DNA of 64,000 nt from a virus (IMGVR_UViG_3300028283_000002:88666-152665), one strand, 5' to 3'; positions 9,698-60,411 are shown, counted from the first letter of the stretch. Program-made: numbers and translations. The notes: a model not told the origin generated them from the sequence alone.

Positions 9698-10935
9698 ATG
9701 AATAACGTAATAACAACATATGACGACTTCTTAAATGAAGGATTGTTAGATGATACTAAAGCTAAGATTTTGAAATGGTGGAACAACTTTCAGAATAGAG
9801 ATAATGTAATAAGAAAGATTCATATGTATCTTAACGCTGGTTCGTGGGGAGTCTTTTCATTTTCATAGCCACTCTTATAGCAATGTGGACACCTACTGAT
9901 ATTGGTAGAACTATACAGTCTTTAATTACAAATAACAAGTTAATGTATTGGGCTATTTTTGTCATGTTGAGTAATGTAAATACTGGCGATAAACAATTAA
10001 TGAAAAAAAGAAAAGAATTAGTAGAAAAGAAAATGAAAGAACTCAGAGATATGTTCGCTGAGAAAAATTATACTAGTCATTATTACGTTGTTTTGGGTGA
10101 TAAAAAAGATATTAAATCAGTACTGGATAAACTTAAAGCAGATGATCTTATTACTGATGCAAATATTATTGACGTTGCTGATGTAACATTGGTTGATTTT
10201 TCAAAAACTTATAACATTAAAGATCCAGATAAATCTGTAGATCCTTATGGCGAAGAAGATTGGGCTGATAAAGATGTTGATGAGAGAGAGGCTTTACAAA
10301 TATCAAACGCTGCAAAGAATTTAGAAGATAAATATAAAGTCAATTTCAGAAAAGTAGAAGACGTGGTAGATTATATGGATAATAAATGGGAAGATTTTTC
10401 TGTAGCCAAGAAATTAACAAAATTTGGTAAAACTACATCTAAAATGTGGGACAGAGAATATCAAAGAGGTATAGATAGAGTAAAACAAAGAAGAGAAGAA
10501 AGAAATAGACCACCAGAACCAGTCTTCTTCGATGATGAAGATGATATTCCAGATGATCCTATGGGTGATTATTATTTTAATGAAATGCCAAACGATTTAG
10601 AATATAATAAAGTGCCTTTGACTGACGCCGAAGCAAAAAATTATAATGTCGGTGACGTAATACCAATTGGAGGTGAAGACTATACTATAACTAGAATAGA
10701 TCCAGAAGAAGATGAAGCCTTCGCATATCCAAACAGATTATTACCAAATAATTGGTTAGAAGAAGAAAGAGCTAAAGGCAACGTAAAAGATTTACCAGAT
10801 GGTAATCGTGACGGTCATAATTATCCAAGAGTAGCTGTTAAAATTGAACCACCAAAGAAAAGATTTATGGATAGATTCAAGGACTTTGTAGTTCCTGGAT
10901 TCGATGTAAAACCACCAGAAGTAATGGAAAGATAA
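9698..10935 (+). CDS. membrane-associated hypothetical protein with DPYGEEDW motif; 5' part out of frame
   Basis: ATG at 9698 (MNNVITTYDDFLNEG..., stop 9868) follows TAATATATA and overlaps the 9844-10935 ORF in the -1 frame. Confidence 0.6.
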
Positions 10936-10936
10936 T

Positions 10937-11305
10937 ATGATAAAAGATTTTCAATTATTTATCGAAGCGATTCGTTGGTACGAAAAAGGAAAACTAGGCG
11001 AAAAAGAAGTTAAAGAAGTCACAGAAGAAGTCTTTAGAGTCGGTGATAACGTTGGGCCTATAGATGCATTTAATATTCATAAATGGCACGATGGATACGA
11101 AGTAAAACACCCAGCTCCAGGTGAAAACGGATTTTGGGAAGAATCTAGGGCTTTTAGCAATGAGCCATTAAATCAATATTGGGAAGTTAATGCGGTCTGT
11201 GATTTTAACAGAGATGGATACGATGGTCAATTAATTCAATTAACAGATAAATACCCTTGGTACCAAGCAATGGGTTTTAAAAAAGTAAATAAATATGGCG
11301 AATAA
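10937..11305 (+). CDS. hypothetical protein (candidate internal head protein)
   Basis: N-terminus MIKDFQLFIEA. Confidence 0.7.
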   Translation: MIKDFQLFIEAIRWYEKGKLGEKEVKEVTEEVFRVGDNVGPIDAFNIHKWHDGYEVKHPAPGENGFWEESRAFSNEPLNQYWEVNAVCDFNRDGYDGQLIQLTDKYPWYQAMGFKKVNKYGE

Positions 11306-11966
11306 AATATCAATTAGAGACATAGAAGCAGCCATCAAAGAATCAATGAAAGGCAGTGAAATACAATTTTCAGATTCAGTCTACGAAGAAAAATCTGGCA
11401 AACTTCGCCTCATAATCTTCTTCAATAAACTTTTTACTAGCACCAACGTGGTCCTCTATACTAAACTTCTTTTCGAAGTTGATAAAAATAAAGAATATCT
11501 TGTAGAAAATAGCAGTGGGCAAAATTTCTTTAAATATTTATATGATATTAATTGCCAATATAATATGAAAATTATTGATGATATAAATGATTTTAAGACA
11601 CAATGGAAGAAGATTATAGATAGTAATGAATTTGGTCCAAATTTAAAAGTGTTATCTGAGTTTATAAAGCAACCTTCATTCATCGTTAATGAGTGGTTTA
11701 ATAAGAATGATGTGAAGGATATATCTATGACTGGGTTTAAATATGAACCTAAGATGAAGATAATGCCTTGTAAGATATTATCGTTTCATTTTGTAATGAA
11801 TGTGAATAATTCGGAAGAAGTGGAATTATTTATAAAGAAAGAGGGTAAGAATGATTTTATGTTAACTTTTACTATTAATGGTAAGAAAGTAGATGTAGAG
11901 AAACCAGATTTAAGTGCTTTGGTGCAAACTATTGGAGAAACTCTAAAAGATAATATGGGACAATGA
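11295..11966 (+). CDS. hypothetical protein
   Basis: 223-aa ORF overlapping both neighbours. Confidence 0.75.
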   Translation: MANKISIRDIEAAIKESMKGSEIQFSDSVYEEKSGKLRLIIFFNKLFTSTNVVLYTKLLFEVDKNKEYLVENSSGQNFFKYLYDINCQYNMKIIDDINDFKTQWKKIIDSNEFGPNLKVLSEFIKQPSFIVNEWFNKNDVKDISMTGFKYEPKMKIMPCKILSFHFVMNVNNSEEVELFIKKEGKNDFMLTFTINGKKVDVEKPDLSALVQTIGETLKDNMGQ

Positions 11967-12379
11967 TTAAGTTATTTGAAGCATATAAAAAGAATTTTTC
12001 ATTTGGACATGAAATTGAAAATTTCAAAGATTTCTACGTTGTTGAAAACGTTGGTAAATTATTTGATATGTGCGATAAGAATGGCAACGAAGTTGTAAGA
12101 TACATGACTCTTCTATGTGATAGTAATAAAGTGAAAATAGAAAAGCAAGACGGTAACATTATAAAATTTAGAGGGTACACTTCAACTGATAATATGTCTT
12201 CTGCTTTTTTAAAAACCTTCTGGGACGTGAATATTGAAAAATGGAGATATATAATTTATTTAGTTGATAGTAAAGGTGGGGAATATAGAACATCTGTAAA
12301 CGATAAAATAACCTTTTATAGATCAAAGGGAATAATATCACCTTTAGATCCATATGGAGAGGAGGTTTGGGATGATTAA
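11963..12379 (+). CDS. hypothetical protein with C-terminal DPYGEEVW tag
   Basis: MIKLFEAY...DPYGEEVWDD*. Confidence 0.75.
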   Translation: MIKLFEAYKKNFSFGHEIENFKDFYVVENVGKLFDMCDKNGNEVVRYMTLLCDSNKVKIEKQDGNIIKFRGYTSTDNMSSAFLKTFWDVNIEKWRYIIYLVDSKGGEYRTSVNDKITFYRSKGIISPLDPYGEEVWDD

Positions 12380-12794
12380 AAATTACCTAACATATATAAG
12401 AGAAAATGTTGAATTTGATGAACCCCCTATTAATTTAAAGGATTTCACTCCTAAATACGTTTTTGATTATTATAAAGAAAAATATTGTGAAAAAGATAAG
12501 ATGTTCAGGTACTGTGAATGGACTAAAATGTATGTAGATTTCATATTAAAAACATTAGAAATAGATAAATATATTATATTTAATGGTAATTCGCCAGGTG
12601 AAAGTAATGAACTACATAGTGGTTATATTAAAAAAGTTTTACAACCAGATAATCAAAAAGCTATAATTCATATTATTTTAGATGACGGTATTGAGTACGG
12701 TATGTACCCAGGTGAAACGGTTAGAATATTTGATAAAGAACCAGAAAAGATATATAGAGAAGAAGATCCGTACGGTGAAGAAGAATGGTATTAA
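12372..12794 (+). CDS. hypothetical protein with C-terminal DPYGEEEW tag
   Basis: Probable start at 12372 (MIKNYLTYIRE); ends DPYGEEEWY*. Confidence 0.75.
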   Translation: MIKNYLTYIRENVEFDEPPINLKDFTPKYVFDYYKEKYCEKDKMFRYCEWTKMYVDFILKTLEIDKYIIFNGNSPGESNELHSGYIKKVLQPDNQKAIIHIILDDGIEYGMYPGETVRIFDKEPEKIYREEDPYGEEEWY

Positions 12795-12837
12795 GCAGAG
12801 CCAATTTTAATATATAAAAGAAAAAAGACATCCGCAA

Positions 12838-14676
12838 ATGCAAATAATAAATTTCATAGAACTCCAATATGATAAACTTAGCGAACAAATAAAAAACTGG
12901 TTGCAAGTAACTTATTCTAAATCAGATATAAACTTCAGCGAAGCGTCAACATACGGACAAATACTTAAAGTTGATAAAGAACTTTTTACTCACAATATTA
13001 TTTATAATAAGAACTCTGTTAATCAAATTGCTATAGACTACGCTACTGATGATAGAATCATAGGTAATTTAGCTCGTATAAGTGGACATAATCCAACACG
13101 TCCTATATCAGCAACTGGGACAATCAATCTCAAACTTAAAACAGGTATTGATATTGAAAGCCAAATTGGTGGTTCGAAAATCAAAATAAATAATAGAACT
13201 CTCCTTAAAAATAAATCAAATAGCCTTTATTATAACATAGTTCTAGGTACAGATTACGTTCTATACGACGTTACAGCAGACATGACTATTCAACTTAACG
13301 TTATACAAGGTCAATACGAATCACAACAATTCACAGGACAAGGAGTTAAAAATCAATCATTTAGTGTTAATGTTGATGGTATAACCAACATTGAGAATTT
13401 CAATTTTGCTGTATTTTATAATGGGTTGTTGTTAAGTCCTAAGGTTGGTATGGTTGATATGTTACCTAATGAATTTGCTTTCTTTTCAAGAACTGGTTTT
13501 CAAGGTGGTTTAGATATTTATTTTGGAACTGGTGATTTTGGATTTGTGCCAGGTATTGGTTCTATAATTGAGTGTAGATATTTATTATCAGACGGTAAGA
13601 ATGGTAATATTCTTAATAATAAAGTAAATGATTTCACATTTATTGATTCAGTATATGACGGTAACGGTGATATATTATCAATGGAAACTTTGTTTGATAT
13701 AACAGTAGAAAATGATATAACTTTTGGTGCAGATAAAGAGAACAAAGTTTTCACAAAGAATGTTGTACCTTTTGTATCTAGAAATTTTGTTCTAGCTACA
13801 CCTGATCAATTTATTTACACATTAAAAAAATTAAATATGTTTTCGCTTATCAATGCTTATAATACTCTCGATGAGAACAACGTAAATAATAACACTTATA
13901 TTGATCAATTTATCACTGCTACATTTGGACAGAACGTTCCAAACAGGGATAAAATAAGAGAAAGTTTAAAAGACTTTTTTCCTAACATTTATGATAACGT
14001 TATTTATTTATATTTAATACCAAACGTTAAAAATTATTTTGTTAGTGATTATAATTACTTCACAATACCTTTTGACGCTTTTTATCTTGATGCTAACGAA
14101 AAGAAAAAAGTAATGGATTATCTAAGACAAATGGGAACTTTATCTATTACAACCAATGTTAAGATAGTTGATCCTGTTATCTCAAGATATGTTATAAATG
14201 TTTACGTAAGAAGATTTAGTGACGACTTTGAAGATAATATTAGAAATAAAATAATTGGTATTGTATCTGATTATTTTATCAATGTAAATAGATATGATAG
14301 AATAGTTAAAGCTGATTTAATTACAAAAATAAAAGAGCAAGTGTCTGGCGTTGATAGTGTTAACTTAGATTTTATTTGTAAAAAGAACGAAGATTATCAC
14401 AGAGATCGTAATATTAATGTAGTTAACGCAAATGTAGCGAACACGAACGATCCGACTTTGTTAGCTCCTCCGACCCCAGTGAATCCAGATAGGTATGACC
14501 CAAATAAAGTTTTGGGATTAGATCCAGTTCAAGGAGATATAGTAGCTGATAAGACTGAGTTTGCTGTATTAAGAGGTGGTTGGTACGATAGAAATGGCAT
14601 TTATTATAACGATGTGCCAATTATAAATGGTTTATCTACAATAAATATTGTTTGGACTGGTGTAAGTGTAAAATAA
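12838..14676 (+). CDS. baseplate wedge subunit (T4 gp6-like)
   Basis: LARISGHNP, IYFGTGDFGFVP, YLLSDGKNGN and FGADKE motifs typical of gp6/baseplate J-like proteins. Confidence 0.8.
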   Translation: MQIINFIELQYDKLSEQIKNWLQVTYSKSDINFSEASTYGQILKVDKELFTHNIIYNKNSVNQIAIDYATDDRIIGNLARISGHNPTRPISATGTINLKLKTGIDIESQIGGSKIKINNRTLLKNKSNSLYYNIVLGTDYVLYDVTADMTIQLNVIQGQYESQQFTGQGVKNQSFSVNVDGITNIENFNFAVFYNGLLLSPKVGMVDMLPNEFAFFSRTGFQGGLDIYFGTGDFGFVPGIGSIIECRYLLSDGKNGNILNNKVNDFTFIDSVYDGNGDILSMETLFDITVENDITFGADKENKVFTKNVVPFVSRNFVLATPDQFIYTLKKLNMFSLINAYNTLDENNVNNNTYIDQFITATFGQNVPNRDKIRESLKDFFPNIYDNVIYLYLIPNVKNYFVSDYNYFTIPFDAFYLDANEKKKVMDYLRQMGTLSITTNVKIVDPVISRYVINVYVRRFSDDFEDNIRNKIIGIVSDYFINVNRYDRIVKADLITKIKEQVSGVDSVNLDFICKKNEDYHRDRNINVVNANVANTNDPTLLAPPTPVNPDRYDPNKVLGLDPVQGDIVADKTEFAVLRGGWYDRNGIYYNDVPIINGLSTINIVWTGVSVK

Positions 14677-14705
14677 AATAGAATTAAAATTTTATATATA
14701 GCTTT

Positions 14706-15215
14706 ATGTTGAAAATATATCAAGAATTCTTAGCAGTAAATGAAGAGATGGCAGCATTTGATCCGTCAGATAGATTAAGATGGGCTGTTCATGAAATTAT
14801 GATGCGTCTTAAAGACGGTGCTATTATAAAATTTGCTGATATGAGTAAAGTTTTAAAATCTGATTTTAAAATTGATATCTCAGAAGGAATACTTAAAGAT
14901 ATATTCGACTCGTGGGACAGATACAACGATCCAGATTATAGTTTCTTTAAAAAAGAAGATAAAAACTGGATGGATGCTTTTTGTTTCCAAGGACACGTTA
15001 AACGTAAATGTAGAGATAAACAAAGTTTCGGTAAACATAGAAAGAAAGAAGTAACATATTCAACTGGCAACGCATATGGTTATTGGCGAGGTAATAAATG
15101 GATACCATATAACACTGGTGTAAGTAGAACAGTAAAGGGCACAACTGCTTTTGATGATCTAGAGGATGATAGATGGACGAACCCTTACGGTAAGGGTGTT
15201 TATTATGGTGATTAA
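14706..15215 (+). CDS. hypothetical protein (candidate internal head protein)
   Basis: N-terminus MLKIYQEFLAVNE closely resembles the T4 IP capsid-targeting sequence. Confidence 0.7.
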   Translation: MLKIYQEFLAVNEEMAAFDPSDRLRWAVHEIMMRLKDGAIIKFADMSKVLKSDFKIDISEGILKDIFDSWDRYNDPDYSFFKKEDKNWMDAFCFQGHVKRKCRDKQSFGKHRKKEVTYSTGNAYGYWRGNKWIPYNTGVSRTVKGTTAFDDLEDDRWTNPYGKGVYYGD

Positions 15216-15227
15216 AAAATTTATAAA

Positions 15228-15809
15228 ATGGTGAAGAAATATAAGCAATTTCTGTTTGAATGGGGATACGGAGGTGAAGGTGGTGCAGCTTCTAAAGATC
15301 CTATTAAAGTTAGAAGTGCTATGCTTACAGAAATAGATCCATTAGAAGCCAAAGAAGAAGAAGAAGAGGAAGAAGATAATAGTGATATTCCTATCCTATC
15401 AGATACTAACGAATCAGTTGATAATGAAGAATTAGATCCTTACGGGGAAGAAGTTTGGGACGGTGATTTACCGAGTTATAGTTATAGAGAATGGAATGAC
15501 GGTATATATAGTTTCTTAAAACAATTAAAAAATACATTCATAGATGAATGTCTTGCTGGTCTAGAAAGAGTAGAGCAAAAAGACGCGGAAGAATGGTTAG
15601 ATGATATATTGAATGAAATAGAAGACGGTGATTACGATTTTAGTTCAGATGATATTAGAGCCATACGTGACGATATAGACGATTTACTTGAATTATGTGT
15701 GGATAATGAAGATGATGATAGAGTCGAAGGTCCTGATCCAGATGAGTACTACGATAGAAAACGTGAAGAAGAATACGAAAGATTCGAAAGGGAGTACGAG
15801 GATAAATAA
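15228..15809 (+). CDS. acidic hypothetical protein with internal DPYGEEVW motif
   Basis: Starts MVKKYKQFLFE; D/E-rich. Confidence 0.7.
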   Translation: MVKKYKQFLFEWGYGGEGGAASKDPIKVRSAMLTEIDPLEAKEEEEEEEDNSDIPILSDTNESVDNEELDPYGEEVWDGDLPSYSYREWNDGIYSFLKQLKNTFIDECLAGLERVEQKDAEEWLDDILNEIEDGDYDFSSDDIRAIRDDIDDLLELCVDNEDDDRVEGPDPDEYYDRKREEEYERFEREYEDK

Positions 15810-15820
15810 TATATACACGT

Positions 15821-16078
15821 ATGATAGAAAGAGAATCCCAAATAAAAGAGTTGTTCGACCTTAAACATAGAAAAGATAATGAAATACATCAACATTTCGA
15901 TTACGAGAACGAGTTGATGAATAAGATGATGCCAGAGTACGCCAGAAGAAATGATACAGTAAATGAATTCGTTTTAAGAATTCAAAAATTATTTGTTTGG
16001 GGAATTGAAGCTCAATTAACAATTCGTAATTTTTATAACTATAGCGTGAATAAGTACTACTCCCGTCATTCAAATTAA
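15821..16078 (+). CDS. hypothetical protein, possibly a small baseplate component
   Basis: 85-aa ORF near the gp6-like gene. Confidence 0.6.
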   Translation: MIERESQIKELFDLKHRKDNEIHQHFDYENELMNKMMPEYARRNDTVNEFVLRIQKLFVWGIEAQLTIRNFYNYSVNKYYSRHSN

Positions 16079-16140
16079 TTATAGAAATTACTAAACTTCA
16101 ATATAAAATATTTATATATAGTATAAAAGAAATACTATTT

Positions 16141-17700
16141 ATGATATTATCTGAAGAAGTTAAAATAAGATTAAATTATAAAAATAAAGAACATTTTAAA
16201 AATTTAGGTTATGATATTGATAATAAGTTTATCAATGTCAGGGTTGAACATTTAAATAAAGGTTCTCATGTTATAGTCAAAATTAAATGTGATGAATGTG
16301 AAATAGAAAAAGAAATACAATATTTTGCTTATATAAAATATTTATCAAGAAGTAAGGATAGTAAATATCGTTGTGGTAAATGTAATCAAATAGATAGAAA
16401 AAGCACCAATATTGAAAGATATGGAGAAGATTCTCCTATAAAAATCAAAGAGTTTAGAGATAATAGAAATAAAACCATTATTGATAAATATGGAACTGAT
16501 CACCCTTGCAAAAATAAAGATGTTAAAAATAAGATATTTAATACTAATTTAGAAAGATATGGAGTAAAATATGTCCCTTTAAATGAAGAAATTCGAGATA
16601 AAATTATAAAAACAAATTATATAAAATATGGGGGAGTTAGTAATTTATCTTCGCGAATAGAAAGAGATAAAATAGAAGATATAATGCTAGATAGATACGG
16701 GTTCAAATATTCTTTACAAATAAAATCTATAAGAGACGTTATAGTTGAAAGAGGATTAATTACAAGAAAAAATAAAATCAAAGATGATTATAAGAATATA
16801 ATAGACATTATAGGAACAGATTATACTGTCAAATGTGATTGTGGCAATGATCATGATTTTGTTATAAATTCTTATAATTTTTATCAAAGAATAAAATATG
16901 GTACTACTATATGTACAATATGTAATCCGATTGATAAACATATTTCTGGTTTGGAAATAGATTTTGTTAATTTCATTAAGGATGAGTATAGAGGAGATAT
17001 ATTGATTAATAATAGAGATATAATACCACCACAAGAAATTGATGTTTATTTTCCAGATTTAAAAGTTGGTTTCGAGTTTAATGGATTATATTGGCATAGT
17101 GATGAATATAAGGAAATTGAATATCATAAAAACAAAATAGAAATTGCCAATAAAAAAGGCATTAAACTCTTACATGTTTATGATGATGATTGGAGATATA
17201 AGAAAGATATAATAAAAAATGATATAAGAAGAATAATAAATCCGAATAAAAGTGACATAGAAGAAATATTTGAAGTGAATAATAGTATAGCTGAAATATA
17301 TAACTACAATAATAATTTATACGGGTATTCAACGTCAAGTATAAATATATGTGGAACAAAAGACAATAATGTTGTTAGTATGATGAACATTAAAAAGAGT
17401 AAGAACGATTATGAGATAGTGAGATTGACAGGCGATGATAATTTTGATCAATTATTTAAATATTTTCTAAATAAATATAAACCAAAGAGGGTGGTTGGAT
17501 TTGTAAATAAAGATTGGAGTATTTATAATTTTTATGAAAGAAATGACTTCATGGTGGAAAATGAAACAGAACCAGATTTTCACTATATAATAGATAATAA
17601 AAGGATGAAAAATATTGAAGGAACATTATTCGAAAATCAAATACAGAAAATATATGATTCTGGTAAAATATTTTACAAATTGGAAATACGAGACAAATAA
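16141..17700 (+). CDS. homing-type endonuclease (ERYG/KYG repeats, Vsr/DUF559-like nuclease domain)
   Basis: EIDVYFPDLKVGFEFNGLYWH; CxxC motifs; paralogous to 40867-42396. Confidence 0.8.
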   Translation: MILSEEVKIRLNYKNKEHFKNLGYDIDNKFINVRVEHLNKGSHVIVKIKCDECEIEKEIQYFAYIKYLSRSKDSKYRCGKCNQIDRKSTNIERYGEDSPIKIKEFRDNRNKTIIDKYGTDHPCKNKDVKNKIFNTNLERYGVKYVPLNEEIRDKIIKTNYIKYGGVSNLSSRIERDKIEDIMLDRYGFKYSLQIKSIRDVIVERGLITRKNKIKDDYKNIIDIIGTDYTVKCDCGNDHDFVINSYNFYQRIKYGTTICTICNPIDKHISGLEIDFVNFIKDEYRGDILINNRDIIPPQEIDVYFPDLKVGFEFNGLYWHSDEYKEIEYHKNKIEIANKKGIKLLHVYDDDWRYKKDIIKNDIRRIINPNKSDIEEIFEVNNSIAEIYNYNNNLYGYSTSSINICGTKDNNVVSMMNIKKSKNDYEIVRLTGDDNFDQLFKYFLNKYKPKRVVGFVNKDWSIYNFYERNDFMVENETEPDFHYIIDNKRMKNIEGTLFENQIQKIYDSGKIFYKLEIRDK

Positions 17701-17732
17701 TATTCTATATATAAAAACAAAAGTTAAACCTA

Positions 17733-18119
17733 ATGGTTGAAGAAATAAAAGACGATAATATACATTTTTACGGCAAAGTAGCAAAAATGCCTAAAAATTC
17801 TAAAGCTGCCCAATCTTATACCTTCTTGGAGAAAATAAAAATATCCAAACAGAAGTTGTGGTATATCTTGATCGAAAAGCAAGATAACGAACTTCAAATG
17901 ATCAAGTATAATAATAAAAAGGGATTCAATTTGAGGGCTTTCGTCGATGGTTTAAAAAATTATTACGCTACTAACGAATCTATGAAACAATATATAGATA
18001 GATTAGAAATAGATGGAAACGATAAATTCTCTATCATAAAGAATATTCCCAACGTTGAAATAGACGGGAAGAAATTGATTTCTATCTTAGCGGAAGACCT
18101 TATCAAATTACTTAAATAA
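17733..18119 (+). CDS. hypothetical protein, paralogous to the C-terminal domain of 54505-55302
   Basis: WYILIEKQ...IDGNDKFSIIKNIP vs WYLLTEKQ...ISGNNNFSVVTNIP. Confidence 0.7.
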   Translation: MVEEIKDDNIHFYGKVAKMPKNSKAAQSYTFLEKIKISKQKLWYILIEKQDNELQMIKYNNKKGFNLRAFVDGLKNYYATNESMKQYIDRLEIDGNDKFSIIKNIPNVEIDGKKLISILAEDLIKLLK

Positions 18120-18121
18120 TG

Positions 18122-18931: not shown

Positions 18932-18955
18932 AATTATATATATTAATAATTAAAT

Positions 18956-21312: not shown

Positions 21313-21349
21313 TTATAACTTTTTCTTTTTTAGATGTTTTTAACATCTT

Positions 21350-32964: not shown

Positions 32965-33252
32965 TTTTAATTTTTTTAATTATAAAATTTATTAAATCAT
33001 TTTTATATTCTTTTAATTCTTTCTCCCATATATATATTATTTTATATCCTTTACTTTCAGCTAATAATTTTTTATTTAAATCCTTTTCCCACAATTCTTT
33101 AGCTATAGCACTTTTAAACGGGTGTGGTAAAATATCAGTTTCTTTATAAATTAAAGGGTTAGCGTGCCAAAAATCTCCATTTATTTCTATTAATAAGTTC
33201 GTATTGGTAATTCTAATATCATATGAATTTTTATTTATCCAATATTGTTTTG
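32951..33252 (-). pseudogene. 5'-truncated Vsr/DUF559-like endonuclease domain
   Basis: Startless frame SKQYWINKNSYDIRI..IEINGDFWHANP..YIWEKE, paralogous to the C-terminus of 35896-36819. Confidence 0.7.
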
Positions 33253-33593
33253 ACTACTTGTAATGATTGTGGGACACAGTATATAAGACATCTACCATCA
33301 CTTATATACTGTGTCCCACAATCATTACAAGTAGTCAGAGGTTTCAATGGTGTTGTTTTCTTACCTTTTATAAAATTACTCCACTGTTTATGATATTTCT
33401 TTTTATAATGTTCACAATTTCTTTCAGATTGTGATAAATAACATTCTGAATCACAAGCCATTCCAGCGTCACTACCAGGATATAAATAATCTAAAAAACA
33501 AGAACCTTCTGGGCATTCACAGATTTCCCAATTCTCTTCACCGTAAGGATCAAGTTCTTTTTTAGAATCAAACATTTTAAATTTTTTTATCAT
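33231..33593 (-). CDS. Cys-rich hypothetical protein with DPYGEENW motif
   Basis: MIKKFKMFDSKKELDPYGEENWE. Confidence 0.65.
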   Translation of the reverse strand: MIKKFKMFDSKKELDPYGEENWEICECPEGSCFLDYLYPGSDAGMACDSECYLSQSERNCEHYKKKYHKQWSNFIKGKKTTPLKPLTTCNDCGTQYISDGRCLIYCVPQSLQVVKTILDK

Positions 33594-47029: not shown

Positions 47030-47284
47030 ATGGGAACGATCGTCAAGACATACGAAGAGTGGGGATTTTTTAAAAAGGAATTAACCCCAGATGAAGAATA
47101 TCAAAAACAAAAGAAACAAGCTTTAAGAGATAAGGTAAAACCAGGAAACGCCCCAGAAGTAGAACCAGGTGAAGAAGAAGATGACGATAAGCCATCTACT
47201 AAAAAAGTTAACGATCAAGATGATTACGGTGAAGAATTTTGGGAGGATGAAGCAGGAGATAAAAATAGAAAATCACCTTGTTAA
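47030..47284 (+). CDS. acidic small protein with DDYGEEFW motif
   Basis: MGTIVKTYEEW; FKKELTPDEEY shared with 47684-47896. Confidence 0.7.
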   Translation: MGTIVKTYEEWGFFKKELTPDEEYQKQKKQALRDKVKPGNAPEVEPGEEEDDDKPSTKKVNDQDDYGEEFWEDEAGDKNRKSPC

Positions 47285-49323: not shown

Positions 49324-49324
49324 A

Positions 49325-50010: not shown

Positions 50011-50021
50011 GAATTCTTATA

Positions 50022-50053
50022 CAAAGATAAGAAGTCTTGTTGAGATAAAAAAA
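50022..50053 (-). promoter_or_regulatory. Bacteroidota sigma-A type promoter (TATCTTTG -7 element)
   Basis: TTTTTTATCTC-spacer-TATCTTTGTAT, repeated at 50174-50205. Confidence 0.65.
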
Positions 50054-50173
50054 TCTTTTGAAAGAATTTTTATCAAATTTTAAAATACCTACTTGTGGGT
50101 TGAATGGTTATCTCGCCTTTCAGTATTCAGTCAGTCTGTGGACTGAAAATTTGATTATCTCATTTTGACTATA

Positions 50174-50205
50174 CAAAGATACGCCACTTTCACGAGATAA
50201 AAAAA
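50174..50205 (-). promoter_or_regulatory. second tandem Bacteroidota-type promoter (TATCTTTG)
   Basis: Same architecture as 50022-50053. Confidence 0.6.
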
Positions 50206-50337
50206 TTATTTGATAAATTTTTTAAAACAACACTAAACAAAGAGCTTTTACTAAATCGTCAGTAATAACAGATTTTATATATTATATATACCTGAGAAAT
50301 TCCTTTGTTTTAAAAAAATTCAAGAAAATATAAAACT

Positions 50338-50505
50338 TTGAAAGACAAACCTTTAGATAAAAAAGAGACTATTTGGCTTTGTCCAGACTGTGATGGGAAA
50401 GGTTATATTGAAAAAGGACAATGTCCATTATGTAAAGGTAAAGGTGAACTTAGATTTACCACTTCCTCTCAAAAGGATTTCGAAGATCCCCAGCCTTCTG
50501 ATTAA
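50338..50505 (+). CDS. small DnaJ-type zinc-finger protein
   Basis: TTG start; CPDCDGKG...CPLCKGKG; 55 aa, below the ORF-track cutoff. Confidence 0.55.
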   Translation: MKDKPLDKKETIWLCPDCDGKGYIEKGQCPLCKGKGELRFTTSSQKDFEDPQPSD

Positions 50506-52726: not shown

Positions 52727-53720
52727 AATTTATTTTATATTTTAAATGACCTGAATCATATATTCTATATATATTTTTTTCTATCATTATTTCGTGTTCG
52801 GTTTTATTAGGATCGGCCCCGTTTTTAACCAATATGTCTTTTCTGAATCCGAATCTATATTTTCTAATTCCGTCTATTACATAATAATAATTAGGCTTAG
52901 TTTTATGAATCAACTTAAATCCGTTATTTTCTATATATTCTATAACTCTGTAAGTATCAAATATAGAAGGTAAATAATGCCCAGCGTATATTAATTTTTC
53001 ATTAATACCTTTTTTCTTTAAAGCTTCTCTATTATCGTCACAAATAGAAAGTTCATGTAGATTGAGATAATCTAATCCTATTTCATTTAATCTTGGAAGC
53101 ACTGATATAAGTTTATCCACTTGCCAGAATTCAGATGGCACTTCGACACAAATCTTATCAAATATTTTTTTACAATATACAAGTTTATCAATTATATCTT
53201 CTCTATATCCTGTGGCAGCTAGATCAAATCTAATTTCATTTATACCGTGTTCTTTTAATTTAATACAATCTTCTTCTGTAACAAGAGTACCATTAGTATA
53301 AATCCATTTATAAAGATTGAGCTGTTCAAAATTTTCGTTGATGAAATCCAACCATTCATATACTTTATCAAGGTACATAAAAGGTTCTCCTCCAGAAAAT
53401 GATATACCTGTTATTCTAGGATTTTTATAAATAACTCTTTTTAAATCATCCAATGAATGTATATCATCGTTACCACCGTTTGCCCATATAAATTCATCAA
53501 CTCCGTGTCTTGATATTTGTGGACAAGAAGCGCATTTAAGGTTACAACTAACACCTATATAAACACAAATCCATTGTCCACTTTTACAAGCGTAGCAACC
53601 TTCTGATAATTTTTTTCCAACTGGTACTATGGTGGCTCCAGAGTTTGATATTTCAATTTTATCTATAATTCTCTGTCTTAATGAGTCTGATATATTCCTG
53701 GCATCTACATATTCTATCAT
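52719..53720 (-). CDS. radical SAM protein with a fused endonuclease-derived C-terminal tail
   Basis: CNLKCASC, SFSGGEP, YTNG, EIRFD; last ~60 aa nearly identical to the C-terminus of 40867-42396. Confidence 0.85.
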   Translation of the reverse strand: MIEYVDARNISDSLRQRIIDKIEISNSGATIVPVGKKLSEGCYACKSGQWICVYIGVSCNLKCASCPQISRHGVDEFIWANGGNDDIHSLDDLKRVIYKNPRITGISFSGGEPFMYLDKVYEWLDFINENFEQLNLYKWIYTNGTLVTEEDCIKLKEHGINEIRFDLAATGYREDIIDKLVYCKKIFDKICVEVPSEFWQVDKLISVLPRLNEIGLDYLNLHELSICDDNREALKKKGINEKLIYAGHYLPSIFDTYRVIEYIENNGFKLIHKTKPNYYYVIDGIRKYRFGFRKDILVKNGADPNKTEHEIMIEKNIYRIYDSGHLKYKINYV

Positions 53721-54439
53721 ATTGAGTTATTATTTTTTTCATCGTATATAACAAATATTTCCCCTAATTCATCTTTCAGTTCTTCTTCAATGTTATTAAC
53801 AAGTATATTTCTTATATTTATATTTTTACTATCTAATTTAACTTTATTATCAACCTTATTATTCTCAGTATAAAAAACGTTGTTAAACTGATTATTATTT
53901 AAGAAGATATCGATTTTATTTTTATATTCAGCTTTATCTAACAACTCACTATTTATTGTAATATCTATAAAATCTTTAGTTAGATTAATTTTTTCAATAT
54001 CATCAATTTCTTTTATTATATATTCTACGAACCTGGGGCTAAACTTGTTTGGAATGAATTTAATTTTATTATCTTTTATTATATTATAACCAATCTGATC
54101 TGTACTATCTTTGTTCAGTTGAAATAATGATATGTCTTTAATTTCGTAATTCAGTTTATCAACTACTTTGATGTATTCGTTAAATAAAGGATAGCAGTAA
54201 TCATTACCAATCATAAATACATTTGAAAACTGAGTCAGAACACCAAGAATTCTTTTTACTTCGTTAATAAGAGAGAAAGTGGTGTGTTTATTATTATAAA
54301 AGAAATCCCCATTAATAATGACTTCGTGCTCTTTCGAACCAGATTTCATTAATGTTTGTATGAAATCTCGGAAGAAATCTAATTGAGATTTAGATAATTT
54401 TGGGTGTCCAAATTTTATATTGGTGAGTATAAAAATCAT
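53717..54439 (-). CDS. degenerate Mre11/SbcD/gp47-like metallophosphoesterase
   Basis: TNIKFG (for SDxHxG), INGDFF, IGND (for GNHD). Confidence 0.55.
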   Translation of the reverse strand: MIFILTNIKFGHPKLSKSQLDFFRDFIQTLMKSGSKEHEVIINGDFFYNNKHTTFSLINEVKRILGVLTQFSNVFMIGNDYCYPLFNEYIKVVDKLNYEIKDISLFQLNKDSTDQIGYNIIKDNKIKFIPNKFSPRFVEYIIKEIDDIEKINLTKDFIDITINSELLDKAEYKNKIDIFLNNNQFNNVFYTENNKVDNKVKLDSKNINIRNILVNNIEEELKDELGEIFVIYDEKNNNSI

Positions 54440-54504
54440 AAACTATTTATGAGAAATGTGGTTAAAAGTTTAATAAAAAACCCAGTCGTTTGGCTGGGTT
54501 AGAT

Positions 54505-55302
54505 TTACTTTTTAATTCCTGATAGTAAGGCAATTAAACTATTTAATAGTTGTTTATGAATATTTTGTGGTATATTAGTTACAACTGAGAAATTATTATT
54601 ACCTGATATTTTAATTTGTCCAAAACTTTCATTTAATAATCTATCTTGTTTCGTGTTTTTCAAAAAATGTCCTACAAGTGCATTCATAAATGGTTGTATT
54701 TCAAAAGCTTTATCGTTATTCCTTATGACATGAATTTCACCTTGCTTTTCTGTTAAAAGGTACCAGTAATCTTCTTTAGATAAAAGTCTTTTTTCAAACA
54801 TTGTATTTATTTCTGAAAATTTAACGTCTTTATAATAAATTAATTTACCAATGGTTTTAATTCTTTCAATGGTTAAATCTACTTGATTATCAGGTGTATT
54901 TTTTTCAGTTTCTTCTTCTTCGTCTTCGATTACTGTTTTCTTTTTCTGTTGCACTCTTTCTACTGGCTTTTCAGTTTTTTGTGGCGGAGGTGTTTGTGTT
55001 GATGGTACTGGAGCGATAGCAGCCTCTGTAAATTTTCTTATTGTAGTTTTATTTTCAAACGCTCTATTTTTTGGATAATGCTCTGTAACATCATCAATAG
55101 TAATTTTAACAGCCCCTCCATTTTTACCTTTTATAAGGAAGTAGTTTTCATATACACCAGATACTTCGCCTCTAATTTCTCTGTTGTTATAGACAGCAAC
55201 AAGAATATCACCTACTTTAACTGAGTTTACGTTCTCAGTAATAGGCAAATCTTCCACTTTTATATTAGCGTTATATAAGTTATATAATTCGTGCAATTCC
55301 AT
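54505..55302 (-). CDS. hypothetical protein (putative head-associated)
   Basis: 265 aa; ITEN and LNES-type possible prohead protease sites; C-domain paralogous to 17733-18119. Confidence 0.65.
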   Translation of the reverse strand: MELHELYNLYNANIKVEDLPITENVNSVKVGDILVAVYNNREIRGEVSGVYENYFLIKGKNGGAVKITIDDVTEHYPKNRAFENKTTIRKFTEAAIAPVPSTQTPPPQKTEKPVERVQQKKKTVIEDEEEETEKNTPDNQVDLTIERIKTIGKLIYYKDVKFSEINTMFEKRLLSKEDYWYLLTEKQGEIHVIRNNDKAFEIQPFMNALVGHFLKNTKQDRLLNESFGQIKISGNNNFSVVTNIPQNIHKQLLNSLIALLSGIKK

Positions 55303-55380
55303 ATTTCTTTCTAAAAATAAAGGTCTATCATCATTGGAGAGGTAGATAGACCCTTATTCGTATTATTTTTTTATTTTATA

Positions 55381-55899
55381 TTATATAGCCTGTCCACCAC
55401 CTTGTGCTGGAGGTATCTGAGCTGCTGTCTGTTGTGCTCCCTGTGCGGGAACTTGTGCTTGTCCGCCTTGTGGCACTTGTGCTTGTGGTTGTGCTCCTGG
55501 TTGTCCTTGTGCCTGTGGTTGAGCAGGTAATTGAGCTTGAGCAGGTTGTGTTTCGTCAAGATCTTCTGTTTGTGATTGTGGACCTTGTGCTTGAGCACCT
55601 TGAGCCTTTGCGTATTGATCACCCAAGATTAAGTTAACAGGAAGGTTTTCGATGCTAACATAAGATGTGATGATATAATCTGCAATTTCTTCTGATAATT
55701 CAACGTCAGAATAGAACTGGCTGATGTTTTTACCACTTTCGTCTTTTACTTTCTTTTTGAAAGCGTTAACGAGAGACATAGGAATATCAATACGTTTTCT
55801 AACTCTATAAACGTCGTCGACAGCTTGAACGTTTTCAGTCAAAGGTGTGATATTTCTTTTACCTTGAAATTCTCCAAATTCGTATAAATTCTTGTTCAT
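55381..55899 (-). CDS. hypothetical protein with Gln/Ala/Pro/Gly-rich tail
   Basis: MNKNLYEFGEF..LTEN; AQPQAQG-type repeats; TAATATATA at 55922-55930. Confidence 0.7.
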   Translation of the reverse strand: MNKNLYEFGEFQGKRNITPLTENVQAVDDVYRVRKRIDIPMSLVNAFKKKVKDESGKNISQFYSDVELSEEIADYIITSYVSIENLPVNLILGDQYAKAQGAQAQGPQSQTEDLDETQPAQAQLPAQPQAQGQPGAQPQAQVPQGGQAQVPAQGAQQTAAQIPPAQGGGQAI

Positions 55900-55949
55900 A
55901 ATTTTAACTTTATTTTTTATGTATATATTAATATTTTATTCTGTTTTTT

Positions 55950-56261
55950 TTAATATTTGTTTCTTTTACTTCTTTTACTTACTTTTAAGTAATGTTTCAT
56001 TTCACCGTTCTTTTCTATTGAAGTTACATCCATTATTATATAACCCAAAGGCGTAATCAAATTTGTAATTCTATCCATAATTAGATCTTCGTCGTTATCG
56101 TATTCGTCTTTATCTTTATTATTTTCAATCTTATCTAATATATCTAAAATTTCTTTTTTATAATTTTTTGGGAAACATTTGGCAAATTTCTTAACTGATA
56201 TAAATATGTTTAATGGTACATCAATAGAAATTTCTTCAAACAATTTAATGTATTCTCCCAT
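55950..56261 (-). CDS. hypothetical protein (candidate internal head protein)
   Basis: N-terminus MGEYIKLFEE. Confidence 0.65.
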   Translation of the reverse strand: MGEYIKLFEEISIDVPLNIFISVKKFAKCFPKNYKKEILDILDKIENNKDKDEYDNDEDLIMDRITNLITPLGYIIMDVTSIEKNGEMKHYLKVSKRSKRNKY

Positions 56262-56290
56262 AATACTATATATTGAAGTTTAAAACTGGT

Positions 56291-57109
56291 TTATTTTCCC
56301 CATCTCCAATTCCATATATCGTAATGTACTGAAACACCCACACTCCAACCAAATCTCGGATTAGCTAAATTGTAATCAGTATTCAATCCAAACCCAACAT
56401 AAGGACCAAATCCAAAATTAGGTCTTGGCTTAGGTGGTTTTTCGGGTTGTTTTTCAATTATATACGCTCCTTCCAATCCAGTTATTTTTAATAAAGGAGA
56501 TTTATTAATAATAAACACTTCATATTTATCTTTGTATTCTCTAAACCCATATATTAAATTCATTGTTGTTAAGTTAGTACAAAACAATGTTGTATCTGGT
56601 TTTAATATCCATTTTTTAGTTACGTCATCAGGATAAGCAAAAAATCTACTTTCACCGTCAAGTTTTTGTGAAAAACTGGAGTCAGCGTAATTAAAATCAA
56701 ACTTTAACCCATATTTATTTGTTTGTTTATCAACTATAATTAATTGATTACCAGCGGTTATACCAGCCAGATTAGCGCTCACTTTAGCGTCGATAGCAGC
56801 GATTACGTCGCCTTTAACTTTACTTAATTGATTATAAAGATATTCATTATATTTTTTTAAATCTTTAAGTTCGTTAACAACGTAATTATCTTTGGATATT
56901 TCGTAAGCGTTTAATTTCTTATTAAATTCAGATGTTATGCTATCTCTCATAGCGCTCCAATTTTGAGCATCTTGCTTTTGTTGATATTCCCACGTAGCTC
57001 TTTCATTTCTTAGAGTACTACATGTAGTGAAGAATAAAGTAAATCCTATAATACAAAGCACAAAAAGTGCTATAGGATAATATTTTTTAATAATTTCCAG
57101 TGTAGTCAT
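56291..57109 (-). CDS. membrane-anchored coiled-coil protein, possible spanin-like lysis protein
   Basis: N-terminal TM segment, coiled coil, C-terminal amphipathic beta-hairpin FGFGPYVGFG..VGVSVHY. Confidence 0.5.
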   Translation of the reverse strand: MTTLEIIKKYYPIALFVLCIIGFTLFFTTCSTLRNERATWEYQQKQDAQNWSAMRDSITSEFNKKLNAYEISKDNYVVNELKDLKKYNEYLYNQLSKVKGDVIAAIDAKVSANLAGITAGNQLIIVDKQTNKYGLKFDFNYADSSFSQKLDGESRFFAYPDDVTKKWILKPDTTLFCTNLTTMNLIYGFREYKDKYEVFIINKSPLLKITGLEGAYIIEKQPEKPPKPRPNFGFGPYVGFGLNTDYNLANPRFGWSVGVSVHYDIWNWRWGK

Positions 57110-57149
57110 AATTAATTTTTATTTTATATATTAAAAGGTTTTAGTCCTA

Positions 57150-59213
57150 TCAGAGATTACTCATATTTTGTTGAGGAGCCTTTAACGGTAATTCTCCGTA
57201 TTTTTTAGTTATTACTCTAGTATTTATATAATTGGTTTTCACCGTTCTATTAGTTAATATAGAAGTCTTATTACATCCACCAAAGATACCTGTTACCCAT
57301 ACTCCGCTCCAAAATACACCGTAGAAATTACCTTCGTGGAATGTGCCACCATAAAATCCGCCGAACCAAGGACCAGTTACACAGTCAACGTATCCGTTAT
57401 AAAAATTACCACCGTAAAAATCACCACCGTACCAATTTATATATGAAGACGCCGCTGGATGTCCAAATGTACCATTGTTAAAAGTTCCACCGCTCCAATT
57501 TATAGATGGTTCTATGCTATTTATTTGAACACCTAATGTACCACTATTCCAAATACCAGTTTCCCAATAAACGTTATGAAAATAAGAATTATTAACTATT
57601 CCGTTTTTAAATGTTCCATTTAACCAATTACTATTTGTAAATGTACCGTACCTAAATGTACCATCGTACCAGAGACTACCATCTGTGAAAGTGCCGTCGT
57701 TAAATGTTCCACCACTCCATACACTATTACTAAACATACCACCATTAAAAGTTCCAGATTTCCACCCTTTACTGTTGTTGGAATAATTTACAGTTTCTCC
57801 TGATATACTAATGGCATTATTACCAGAATTAAATATTCCGCCATTAAATGTGCCACCACTCCAATAAGAATTAGATATTTTCCCACCGTTAAATACACCG
57901 TTATTCCAATTTATATCTATAAGATTTCCATCGTAACAAGTGCCATTAATCCAGTTGGTGTTCAATAGAGTTCCACCATTACAGGTGCCGTTGTACCAAT
58001 TACATTGGGTCATGTTACCACCGTTAAATTTACCATCAGCCCATTCAGTATTAATAATATTTCCACCACTAAATGTGCCTCCACTCCAAATACTGTTACT
58101 CATAGTGCCTCCTTGAAACAAGCCAGTTCTCCAAGTTGATCCAGAGAAAATTCCGTCGTTGAAAACCCCATCCCTCCATTCTTTACCTATAAAACTACCA
58201 CCATTCCAAATTCCGTTGTACCATACATCTTGTGTAAAAGTACCTCCACTCCATATACCGTTAAACCAATAACAATCAGAGTCGAGGGGAGTATTATAAA
58301 AAATACCACCGTTTATAGTTGAGTTTTTTATTTCAGAATTTGTAAATAATCCACCATTTATAGTACATTCAGTTAAAACACAATTTTCATAATGACCATT
58401 ATCAATTTGACAATTATGTAGATGATTATAATATATGTAATTATAACCGTAACTATTATTATTATTCGTGTAATAAGAAGAAACAGGAGTAGGATCTTGA
58501 TTTAATGTGTCTGTTCCTTTATACACATAAGGTTTATAAACTGATGCTGTATTACCTGTATTTGTAGATGAATTTGTGGTAATATATAAATTATCATATT
58601 TATCTTTATATCGCATAAAGAAAGATACTCCACTAAAGACAACAGCTTGAACTAAATTTATATCTATAGCAGCGTCAGTTGGTGTATTAAAAATAGCATT
58701 AATTATTTCAGCTCCATTTATTTCACCTCCAGTTAAAGTTATATTTTTTATGTAAATTTCACTTATATAATGATCATATATTTTTTTATTAACAAATCTA
58801 TCATCGTAATATCTATCAATTGTTATTTCATTATTCTTATCATTTATTTCAATCACTTTATAACCTTGTAACTGTGGGAGATATATAAAATTTGTACATC
58901 CAGAAAATTCCAAATAATTATCTATAATCATACTATCTGTCATTCCTGTGTTTGATCCATTTTTATTAAACATTATAAATATTTTATCACCAACTCTTAT
59001 ATTTGAATTTATTTCAGTATATAATTTTATTTTTCCACCGTTGTTAGTAATCACAGGTAATAATTTTACGGCGTTTGGTGCCTGTGAATAATTGGTATTA
59101 TTGAATACATTGATCTTTTCTTGTTGTGGCACGGTTTGCACTACTTCTTGAACAGTTTGTGTTCCAGTTGTTGTTATTACTAAATCTTGTGAAAAAATAT
59201 CAGCCGTTGGCAT
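57150..59213 (-). CDS. beta-solenoid repeat virion protein
   Basis: Many W-x-x-G-T-F-N-G-G pentapeptide-based repeats; TAATATATA at 59235-59243. Confidence 0.7.
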   Translation of the reverse strand: MPTADIFSQDLVITTTGTQTVQEVVQTVPQQEKINVFNNTNYSQAPNAVKLLPVITNNGGKIKLYTEINSNIRVGDKIFIMFNKNGSNTGMTDSMIIDNYLEFSGCTNFIYLPQLQGYKVIEINDKNNEITIDRYYDDRFVNKKIYDHYISEIYIKNITLTGGEINGAEIINAIFNTPTDAAIDINLVQAVVFSGVSFFMRYKDKYDNLYITTNSSTNTGNTASVYKPYVYKGTDTLNQDPTPVSSYYTNNNNSYGYNYIYYNHLHNCQIDNGHYENCVLTECTINGGLFTNSEIKNSTINGGIFYNTPLDSDCYWFNGIWSGGTFTQDVWYNGIWNGGSFIGKEWRDGVFNDGIFSGSTWRTGLFQGGTMSNSIWSGGTFSGGNIINTEWADGKFNGGNMTQCNWYNGTCNGGTLLNTNWINGTCYDGNLIDINWNNGVFNGGKISNSYWSGGTFNGGIFNSGNNAISISGETVNYSNNSKGWKSGTFNGGMFSNSVWSGGTFNDGTFTDGSLWYDGTFRYGTFTNSNWLNGTFKNGIVNNSYFHNVYWETGIWNSGTLGVQINSIEPSINWSGGTFNNGTFGHPAASSYINWYGGDFYGGNFYNGYVDCVTGPWFGGFYGGTFHEGNFYGVFWSGVWVTGIFGGCNKTSILTNRTVKTNYINTRVITKKYGELPLKAPQQNMSNL

Positions 59214-59302
59214 TTATAAGGTTTTATTTTACTCTATATATTAAATTTTGAAAACTAAATCACAAAAAAATAATATAATTTAAAAATAAGTGAATAAGTA
59301 GC

Positions 59303-59638
59303 ATGAATGACGATGTAGAAAGTAAAAAGAAAGAACTGAAAGAAAGACTTGAAAGTGACCTATACGTTGATAGGTACAGCTCTTTCAGAGAGTCTGTTGA
59401 ACTCATTAACAAAGCACTTGAGTCTTTTAATATTAATTATCAATACACTTATAACGAATTTTGTTCTGACTTTACAAATGAATGTTTAAAATACATTGAC
59501 GAACACCCAAAAGTGGATATGACAGATCCACAACAAATGATGGTATATACTTTCCCGATAGTTATGTCGATAGTGGATCGTGCAAAAAATAAATACGGAA
59601 TTAAAGATGATAAATCTAATAGTACGCCTATTGAATAA
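59303..59638 (+). CDS. hypothetical protein
   Basis: 111-aa ORF. Confidence 0.65.
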   Translation: MNDDVESKKKELKERLESDLYVDRYSSFRESVELINKALESFNINYQYTYNEFCSDFTNECLKYIDEHPKVDMTDPQQMMVYTFPIVMSIVDRAKNKYGIKDDKSNSTPIE

Positions 59639-59781
59639 TAGGTTCAAAAAGAAGATGGATAAATACAATAAACCTTTGACTAAAAAGAAATTAGTCAAAA
59701 AGAAATTAATGCCTCTTGTTTATGGAGGTATTCCAAAACCACCAATTCCTAAAATTAGAACAGTTGGTGAGTAAAAAGTAA

Positions 59782-60411
59782 TTGACGAACATGATTAATT
59801 TTATAGCAAACAAACTAAATGATAGATATAAAAGGCTTTTAGAAAGAGATATAGAAAGACAAATAGCTGAAGACGAAAGAAAAAAAGCTGAAGAAGAAAG
59901 ATTAGCAAATATACCACTAAATATTCCAGATAATAAATGGTGGATTAGCGATAACCCAATAGAAGAAGATAAGTGGTACGACGGTGTATTCTCAAGTGGT
60001 ACCACAATACCATCTAGTAAATGGTCAAACGGAACTTGGTTAGGAGTGTCTGGATCATCTGGTTACGGAGTATCAGGGAGCGCAGGAGTATCAGGCAGTG
60101 CTGGTGTATCAGGAACAAGAGGATTAAGTGGTTCATCTGGATTTTGTGGGACTTCCAGTTATTCCGATCCAGGTATAAAGTACGCTGAATATTTAGCCGA
60201 ACAAATTAATAAATCGATAAATTATCAAGAATATATAGCAGAACAACTTGATAAAAGTATCCAATATAGTGAATATGTGGCAGAACATCTTGATGTAACA
60301 AATTACACAAATTGGAAGAACGGTTACGCAGCACACACTAAACCAAAAAAAGAAGTTAAAAGGGTTTATAGTGAAGAAGATCCTTACGGAGAAGAAGATT
60401 GGTCAGTATGA
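59782..60411 (+). CDS. mosaic hypothetical protein with C-terminal DPYGEEDW tag
   Basis: SG repeats, YxEYxAE repeats, ends VYSEEDPYGEEDWSV. Confidence 0.7.
   Translation: MTNMINFIANKLNDRYKRLLERDIERQIAEDERKKAEEERLANIPLNIPDNKWWISDNPIEEDKWYDGVFSSGTTIPSSKWSNGTWLGVSGSSGYGVSGSAGVSGSAGVSGTRGLSGSSGFCGTSSYSDPGIKYAEYLAEQINKSINYQEYIAEQLDKSIQYSEYVAEHLDVTNYTNWKNGYAAHTKPKKEVKRVYSEEDPYGEEDWSV

Follow-up and report, generated by a model that had tools for sequence, protein, structure and literature searches.

The XB tail of SspB and RssB tethers these adaptors to the N-domain of ClpX, and RimK acts on the Glu-Glu tail of ribosomal protein S6. In phage T4, the internal proteins IPI-III and Alt carry the capsid targeting sequence (CTS) MKTYQEFIAE. 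A CTS is the only common feature of the T4 internal proteins, and takes them into the scaffolding core (PMC3012670). Encapsulins load unrelated cargo by means of short terminal peptides (PMC11664910, PMC8229669), and EDWGE, the acidic tail of LysW with its Trp, is recognised by the ATP-grasp enzymes LysX and ArgX (PMC10433800). Here we describe DPYGEExW, an eight-residue peptide present seven times in a 64,000 nucleotide stretch of viral DNA (IMGVR_UViG_3300028283_000002:88666-152665, called the window hereafter), which an earlier note, made from the sequence of the window, had put forward as a tag shared by unrelated phage proteins. We conclude that DPYGEExW is a real, very strongly selected, lineage-specific and portable peptide tag.

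The window corresponds to bases 88,666-152,665 of a viral contig of 152,665 bp (30% G+C), with a CheckV completeness of ~21%. A 1,285-residue tail-sheath-like protein encoded by the contig is 95% identical to its counterpart in LR756501.1, a 735,411-bp genome listed as 'uncultured phage'. LR756501 was the largest phage genome described as of 2020, and belongs to the Mahaphage clade, with a predicted Bacteroidetes host (PMC7162821); a phage genome of 841 kb was reported in a preprint in 2025. A six-frame regular-expression scan of the window returned exactly seven matches, which are the seven copies of the earlier note, at the same positions and on the same strands. All are in frame within open reading frames (ORFs), on the coding strand (carriers m30 to m36, detailed below).

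The earlier note had proposed to look for the motif in the rest of the genome and in related phages, where it proved massively enriched. Over the contig as a whole, 34 ORFs carry 36 copies, 7 of these copies being in the window, while 9×10−5 copies are expected by chance from the residue frequencies of its 47,031 coding residues, and 200 protein shuffles produced 0. In LR756501, 103 matches to the back-translated pattern were found, and 0 to the reversed pattern used as a control. A crude gene call on the whole genome gave 1,053 genes. Among these, 87 are tagged, with a total of 101 copies: 40 at 5 residues or less from the C-terminus, 19 in the first 35 residues, and 42 internal. Two IMG/VR relatives contain 37 and 11 copies, and the scan of IMG/VR gave, among the matches listed, at least 112 loci and at least 246 copies, in DNA of 20-42% G+C.

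This abundance has sharp borders. Even when one or two mismatches are allowed, the motif is absent both from LR756504, LR756502, LR756500, LR745206 (same clade) and Lak-A2 and from ten large contigs with a prohead protease 61-68% identical. Host proteomes, which the earlier note had suggested as another place for the motif, did not stand out: 72 single matches were found across 185,579 prokaryote species, represented by one genome each, for a chance estimate of ~70. This means that the motif is not a host system. A full-text search of the literature for DPYGEE returned unrelated eukaryotic papers only, and no publication describing the tag was found.

Three minor observations were made during these scans. 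Among the matches in the GTDB species genomes are a segment of a Lactobacillaceae enolase, hairpins of beta-propellers, and some small contigs of phage origin that were probably mis-binned with Bacteroidota. Canonical C-terminal tags are present on contigs of 3-8 kb, with 31-36% G+C, in metagenome-assembled genomes assigned to Bacteroidota/Bacteroidales and Hyphomicrobiales (L126, L182, L190, L150), which are probably mis-binned fragments of these phages. Finally, IMG/VR relatives (L013, L019, L064, L086, L117 and others) have a multi-copy paralogous family of 170-360 aa, whose members begin with MIKNFKIFEQL...DI-DPYGEEDW-NDDNDTPIITLAKKQNKPLDQI; the tag is therefore also found on expanded families, and not on orphans alone.

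Apart from the tag, the carriers are dissimilar, as the earlier note had stated. With the motif masked, an all-against-all BLASTP of the contig carriers gave no match at E≤0.01, and the 87 carriers of LR756501, masked and compared among themselves, gave none at E≤1e-4. For most of them, no Pfam or PHROG family was matched. In tail alignments the conserved stretch is just ~20 residues long, with the consensus P-x(3-5)-[KR]-[VI]-[FY]-[ST]-x-x-DPYGEExW-[DE][DE], so that the motif is not part of a larger homologous domain.

The synonymous codon variation noticed earlier between copies is real, and a comparison of orthologues confirmed its meaning. In 28 orthologous copies, contig versus LR756501, synonymous codon differences amounted to 23.1% in the motif and 20.4% in the flanks (p=0.44), a level that leaves no nucleotide conservation beyond what the peptide needs and does not fit a DNA repeat. 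In the same copies, amino-acid changes were 0/196 at the fixed positions, compared to 195/1148 (17%) in the flanks. Likewise, orthologues of m33 with 38-45% identity keep all seven fixed residues. Since synonymous sites drift like their flanks while fixed residues are unchanged, we conclude that conservation acts at the peptide level.

The tag is found at C-termini, just behind a T4 CTS-like N-terminus, or between modules; the internal copies of m14 and m18, for example, lie where two modules are fused. In the N-terminal class, M-I-K-K-F-K-[IL]-F-E comes first, with the motif 4-8 residues further on. Residues after the Trp vary (DD, EN, EE, KE, TS, SV, Y or none). Position -3 is commonly Ser/Thr in C-terminal copies, the others having N, R, K or C there, and Ser/Thr at this position is absent from the N-terminal class. 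In an AlphaFold2 (AF2) model of m33 built from a three-sequence alignment, residues 1-85, tag included, had a predicted local distance difference test score (pLDDT) of 44-50, and the helical residues 86-160 a pLDDT of 75-87. Judging from its terminal or linker positions and from this one usable model, the tag sits on flexible ends or linkers.

Two folded contexts of the same string were encountered (GTDB loci L125, L138-L140 and others). A Lactobacillaceae enolase paralogue reads IISIE-DPYGEEDW at the universal enolase SIEDP..DW segment, and several beta-propeller proteins have LVKT-DPYGEExW hairpins. By analogy, these strings could give hints on the local conformation open to the tag. Enolase mimicry was considered and rejected: because that enolase segment is normally buried, the likeness was judged to be a local structural coincidence.

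We then come to the N-terminus that accompanies the tag. The earlier note had seen a capsid-targeting-like N-terminus on six of the seven window carriers, and this was verified: m31 to m35 have it directly, m30 only via the upstream fragment 9698-9868, and m36 is without it. The link extends to the whole genome of LR756501, with odds ratios of 4-10. There, 28 of the 87 carriers have such an N-terminus, against 45 of the 966 other proteins (odds ratio 9.7, p=5×10−14), and a stricter scaffold-core pattern gave an odds ratio of 4.0 (p=3×10−4).

This N-terminus has its counterpart in the prohead protease gene of LR756501 (73913-76336), which is fused to a scaffold where a 14-residue unit, N-I-K-Y-S-E-Y-I-A-E-x-L-D-K, is repeated 11-13 times. 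In many proteins the N-terminal tag, M-I-K-x-[FY]-x-x-[FY]-[IL]-x-E (MIKNYSKYIKE, MITNFSTYINE etc.), is one unit of that scaffold repeat. Counted per position, the repeat core [FY]-x-x-[FY]-[ILV]-x-E is enriched at N-termini relative to internal positions by a factor of 23 in LR756501, and of 8 in LR756504 and in the contig; a position-weight matrix of the scaffold repeat yielded a weak enrichment at N-termini, the repeats being too few for training. This offers a mechanism for the CTS resemblance, in which proteins would co-assemble with the scaffold repeats and be cleaved after the Glu. Concerning the protease itself, the PF03420 match is of 24.1 bits in LR756501, below the 27-bit cut-off, and of 57.6 bits in Lak-A2. 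The contig, which represents ~21% of the genome, is without a protease gene; the terminase and baseplate wedge genes in the window are of T4 type.

A second link to the head came from 20 small proteins of LR756501, each a mini-copy of some part of a protease-scaffold, sheath, portal-like or capsid-like protein. The tag is present on eight of these 20, i.e. on 8 of the 87 carriers versus 12 of 962 others (odds ratio 8.0, p=9×10−5). The mini-copies are scattered (for example at 11314, 48028, 145891, 276342, 542326, 552409 and 553796), with 30-48% identity to the resident genes, except for one match that spans 13 residues only and is outside this range, and jointly they almost tile the capsid protein. 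In the protease-domain mini-copy, the stretches taken as the catalytic His and Ser sites are altered, the position of these two residues in the LR756501 protease being our own assignment.

It is probable that one common partner reads the tag. We tentatively favour the reading in which DPYGEExW is a docking label, recognised by a single conserved receptor that the phage encodes and that is tied to head assembly. Within a single lineage of huge phages related to T4, the tag appears to have spread as copied DNA to more than 80 genes of unrelated origin, and selection on the peptide has retained it since. The receptor, whose existence we infer, would most likely belong to the head-assembly pathway, either in the prohead core or at the assembly site. 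DPYGEExW would work there beside the N-terminal tag, a mimic of one scaffold-repeat unit which the T4-type prohead protease would remove after the Glu.

The T4 CTS is the closest parallel, being also a short portable peptide on diverse proteins, in the T4-related setting of a T4-type prohead protease and scaffold, and the N-terminal tag present on 28 of the 87 carriers closely resembles it and copies the scaffold repeat. However, DPYGEExW itself does not match the CTS peptide: it differs in sequence, in position and in chemistry (acidic, with Tyr/Trp anchors), would not be removed with the N-terminal tag, and marks ~8% of the proteome, membrane proteins included. Encapsulin cargo-loading peptides are likewise short terminal peptides on unrelated cargo, which dock inside an HK97-fold shell and are portable to foreign proteins. 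There, one or few cargo types are encoded beside the shell gene, whereas here more than 80 carriers are scattered genome-wide.

Several points weigh against a docking label for head assembly. The phages are uncultured. Integral membrane proteins make up 7 of the 87 carriers, a rate similar to that of other proteins, with the tag on the cytoplasmic side, and such proteins are unlikely capsid cargo; among bearers of the N-terminal tag, membrane proteins were 2/49 compared to a background of 9.9% (p=0.23), which is not decisive. Two thirds of the carriers are devoid of the N-terminal tag. In the N-terminal class, DPYGEExW lies downstream of the presumed protease site and would be kept on the mature protein, meaning that it is not simply a removable loading signal, and in tail alignments the C-terminal tags have no fixed protease site before them. 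Finally, no receptor was identified among the three candidates examined, namely an SH3-like insert, a GNAT-like family and a RimK-type ligase, none of which strictly co-occurs with the motif. The SH3-like insert, at residues ~570-640 of the LR756501 protease-scaffold, is missing in LR756504 and is the only scaffold feature that differs between the two; it was rejected as a specific reader, being acidic and present at 37-69% identity in contigs without the motif or a comparable tag. The GNAT-like SCM...YMDR family was also discarded, with 10 copies in LR756501 but 14 in the motif-negative LR756504; its members are adjacent to tagged genes in 3 cases out of 10, versus 1.45 expected (p=0.16, not significant). 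Phyletic profiling gave 29 genes that are in LR756501, G001 and G003 and absent from LR756504, G006, G007 and G009, mostly because the contigs overlap around the head module. This profile is not discriminating.

Other explanations of the tag have to be weighed against the same data. The tag could tether its carriers to a cytoplasmic hub (for example a chaperone, a protease, an unfoldase or some other enzyme), with each carrier binding a target of its own through its variable domain, or it could be a degron that times the turnover of accessory proteins. We regard this as rather unlikely, although it would account for the presence of the tag at either free terminus and on flexible tails, for membrane carriers occurring at the background rate with the tag always cytoplasmic, for the majority of carriers being accessory proteins that are small and orphan, many of them encoded in arrays of short genes, and for the two thirds of carriers without a capsid-targeting-like N-terminus. 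The XB tail of SspB and RssB is of this kind, a short conserved peptide that ends a flexible tail and holds different proteins on one machine; its sequence is different, however, its carriers are far fewer, and for DPYGEExW no unfoldase partner was identified. No candidate hub was found, phage ClpX-like or Lon-like genes not having been systematically searched for, the motif is unused in host genomes, and a hub alone leaves the enrichments of the N-terminal tag and of virion mini-copies unexplained. A terminal degron is in addition unworkable for the ~40% of copies that are internal by crude gene calls, some of them between fused modules. There is a slim chance that the tag has no partner at all, and is a structural cap, folding into a small hairpin or strand-turn-helix by which the ends of proteins are stabilised, solubilised or protected. 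The same eight residues do form a strand-turn element in folded enolase and beta-propeller blades, and an acidic tag would aid solubility, but seven invariant positions over ~200 copies and in 38%-identity orthologues exceed what capping or solubility needs, the tag is confined to one lineage, and in m33 it is modelled as unstructured. Most improbable of all is a nucleic-acid element, i.e. a cassette-shuffling recombination junction or a signal for ribosome binding or coupling, with the peptide as a by-product. Traces at the DNA level do exist. The founder codon form is GAT CCT TAC GGT GAA GAA, and 60-74% of the motif Tyr codons are TAC, compared to 33% genome-wide, which points to a spread of the tag by DNA copying. 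C-terminal copies, and only these, have an excess of GGA codons (24% versus 4%) and of GAG, which creates GGAG-like runs 5-10 bases before the next start; the start of the next gene often overlaps the tail, W-D-D-stop (GATGATTAA) being read as M-I-K in the next frame. Nevertheless, the synonymous drift described above, equal to that of the flanks under an unchanged peptide, largely refutes this explanation, N-terminal and internal copies have no downstream start, and every copy is in frame on the coding strand, with none found by the reversed pattern.

The last rival, which we consider improbable, is covalent modification: the tag would be the substrate of a lineage-specific ATP-grasp ligase of the RimK type, modified on its Glu or Asp carboxylates. 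The gene in question (LR756501 86972-88534) matches PF08443 RimK with E=1.7×10−20, and RimK ligases are its nearest solved structures; its neighbour matches PF00152. Both are part of a cluster on the minus strand of LR756501 (83360-89503; 115067-119844 in G001) that comprises a synthetase-like gene (class II aminoacyl-tRNA-synthetase-like core of 291 aa), the ligase (520 aa, extended at its N-terminus by a Lys-rich stretch that includes DDPLPYGGQPYEGF), one or more tagged proteins, and a 265-aa paralogue. Two tagged genes, of 210 and 669 aa, are present in LR756501; of these, G001, G003 and L393 have the 669-aa gene alone. The arrangement synthetase-like, RimK-like, 669-aa tagged and 265-aa protein, and the ligase with it, is conserved in LR756501 and these three relatives. 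The ligase family is absent from four complete motif-negative megaphages (LR756504, LR756502, LR756500 and Lak-A2), and the synthetase-like gene from LR756504. The LysW precedent, in which an acidic Trp tail is likewise read by an ATP-grasp enzyme, makes the ligase a chemically attractive candidate, and among the complete megaphages tested, only the motif-positive lineage has this RimK-type ligase. On the other side, LysW is a single dedicated carrier with a fixed C-terminal Glu as acceptor, whereas the phage tags are also N-terminal and have variable ends (D, E, N, K, S, V, Y or none), which leaves no fixed acceptor. Ligase homologues of 46-47% identity occur in contigs without the motif within 10 kb, ~30 other genes have the same phyletic pattern, and such ligases could equally serve in the modification of DNA or of a metabolite. 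A microviridin-type cross-link is not general either: many copies, but not all, have Ser/Thr at position -3, and the tag is without the invariant Ser/Thr/Lys nucleophile, paired with Asp or Glu, of a graspetide core.

Returning to the docking label, the motif-negative sister phage LR756504 turned out to have a C-terminal tag of its own, [RK][KR]-x-[RK]-I-[ED]-x-L (RKxRIExL), located 0-5 residues before the stop. This tag is on 27 proteins that form 20 similarity clusters and are mostly unrelated, and shuffles gave 0. In addition, ~45 proteins of LR756504 start with MKY[LI]K-x-[FY]-E. A different tag in LR756504 fits with lineage-specific pairs of tag and receptor. It is conceivable, if doubtful, that huge phages of the Mahaphage clade use a proteome-wide address code, each lineage having its own tag (DPYGEExW, or RKxRIExL in LR756504) and a co-evolving receptor, to sort dozens of unrelated accessory proteins, the mini-copies of capsid, portal and sheath parts among them, to one destination, for example the prohead core or an assembly site. 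Such a code would be protein sorting on a larger scale than is known for any virus of bacteria. This different tag of LR756504, the copying of a scaffold-repeat unit by the N-terminal tag and the enrichment of mini-copies are the new observations made here; the link with virion mini-copies and the different tags of sister lineages suggest a general, evolving mechanism beyond one genome.

If one receptor reads DPYGEExW, ~8% of the proteins (about 1/12) in phages that are among the largest described would be handled as one group, and the many orphan genes that enlarge these genomes would obey a sorting or loading logic. The eight-residue peptide would then be a direct handle on the machinery, and could serve as a portable label for loading foreign proteins.

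The seven window carriers are as follows. The three copies that the earlier note had placed close to the C-terminus are indeed separated from the stop by just 1-2 residues (DD, Y and SV). The first belongs to m31, an orphan ORF of 138 aa (11963-12379, plus strand) that starts with MIKLFEAYKK and ends with the tag DPYGEEVW (12347-12370, plus strand) followed by DD-stop; its tail GATGATTAA overlaps the ATG ATT AAA (M-I-K) of the following gene. It has 2 homologues among 5.8 billion proteins, and no Pfam or PHROG family. The following ORF, m32 (12372-12794, plus strand), is a 140-aa orphan as well, with a scaffold-repeat-like start, MIKNYLTYIRE, and a C-terminal tag DPYGEEEW (12765-12788, plus strand) then Y-stop, and is immediately followed by the baseplate wedge gene (12838-14676). 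A single-sequence AF2 model of m32 had a mean pLDDT of 39.6 and was unusable. Shine-Dalgarno-like runs (GGAGAGGAG, AAGGAG) were seen just upstream of overlapping starts, at 12347-12379 and at gene junctions contig-wide. As Bacteroidetes are not known to make much use of Shine-Dalgarno sites, strong runs were unexpected given the predicted host.

The third C-terminal copy is in m36, a 206-aa ORF (59791-60411, plus strand) composed of a coiled coil, a collagen-like G-x-S run, three scaffold repeats and the tag, and ending with KRVYSEE-DPYGEEDW-SV-stop (tag at 60379-60402, plus strand). Its scaffold repeats, Y-x-E-Y-[ILV]-A-E at residues ~122-175, are 51-65% identical by BLASTP to the protease-scaffold repeats of LR756501. 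The N-terminal class is represented by m34, a Cys-rich ORF of 120 aa on the minus strand (33231-33593), in which MIKKFKMFDSKKEL is followed by DPYGEENW (33528-33551, minus strand) and then by the payload. In m33, of 193 aa (15228-15809, plus strand), the N-terminus MVKKYKQFLFE precedes an acidic low-complexity arm, the tag DPYGEEVW at residues 70-77 (15435-15458, plus strand) and a helical domain. The sole variant copy, DDYGEEFW (47219-47242, plus strand), is found in m35, an ORF of 84 aa (47030-47284, plus strand), 13 residues before the stop.

In m30, the tag DPYGEEDW (10240-10263, plus strand) is internal, at residue 120 of 350. The ORF (9883-10935) is the downstream portion of a gene split by a frame change, and the upstream fragment, 9698-9868, bears the CTS-like N-terminus MNNVITTYDDFLNE. 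The counterpart in LR756501 is a single ORF of 414 aa, in which this fragment is fused; the split could be a genuine frameshift or an assembly error.

Besides the T4-type large terminase and the baseplate wedge protein, the window encodes sheath, collagen-like fibres, large glycosyltransferases and homing endonucleases, and its baseplate and fibre genes are interleaved with tagged genes. At its left end, positions 3-623 (minus strand) cover the N-terminal part of m29, a 483-aa ORF whose C-terminal tag, DPYGEENW-EN-stop, is 822 bases before the window. This gene is the last of ten consecutive tagged genes immediately upstream of the window.

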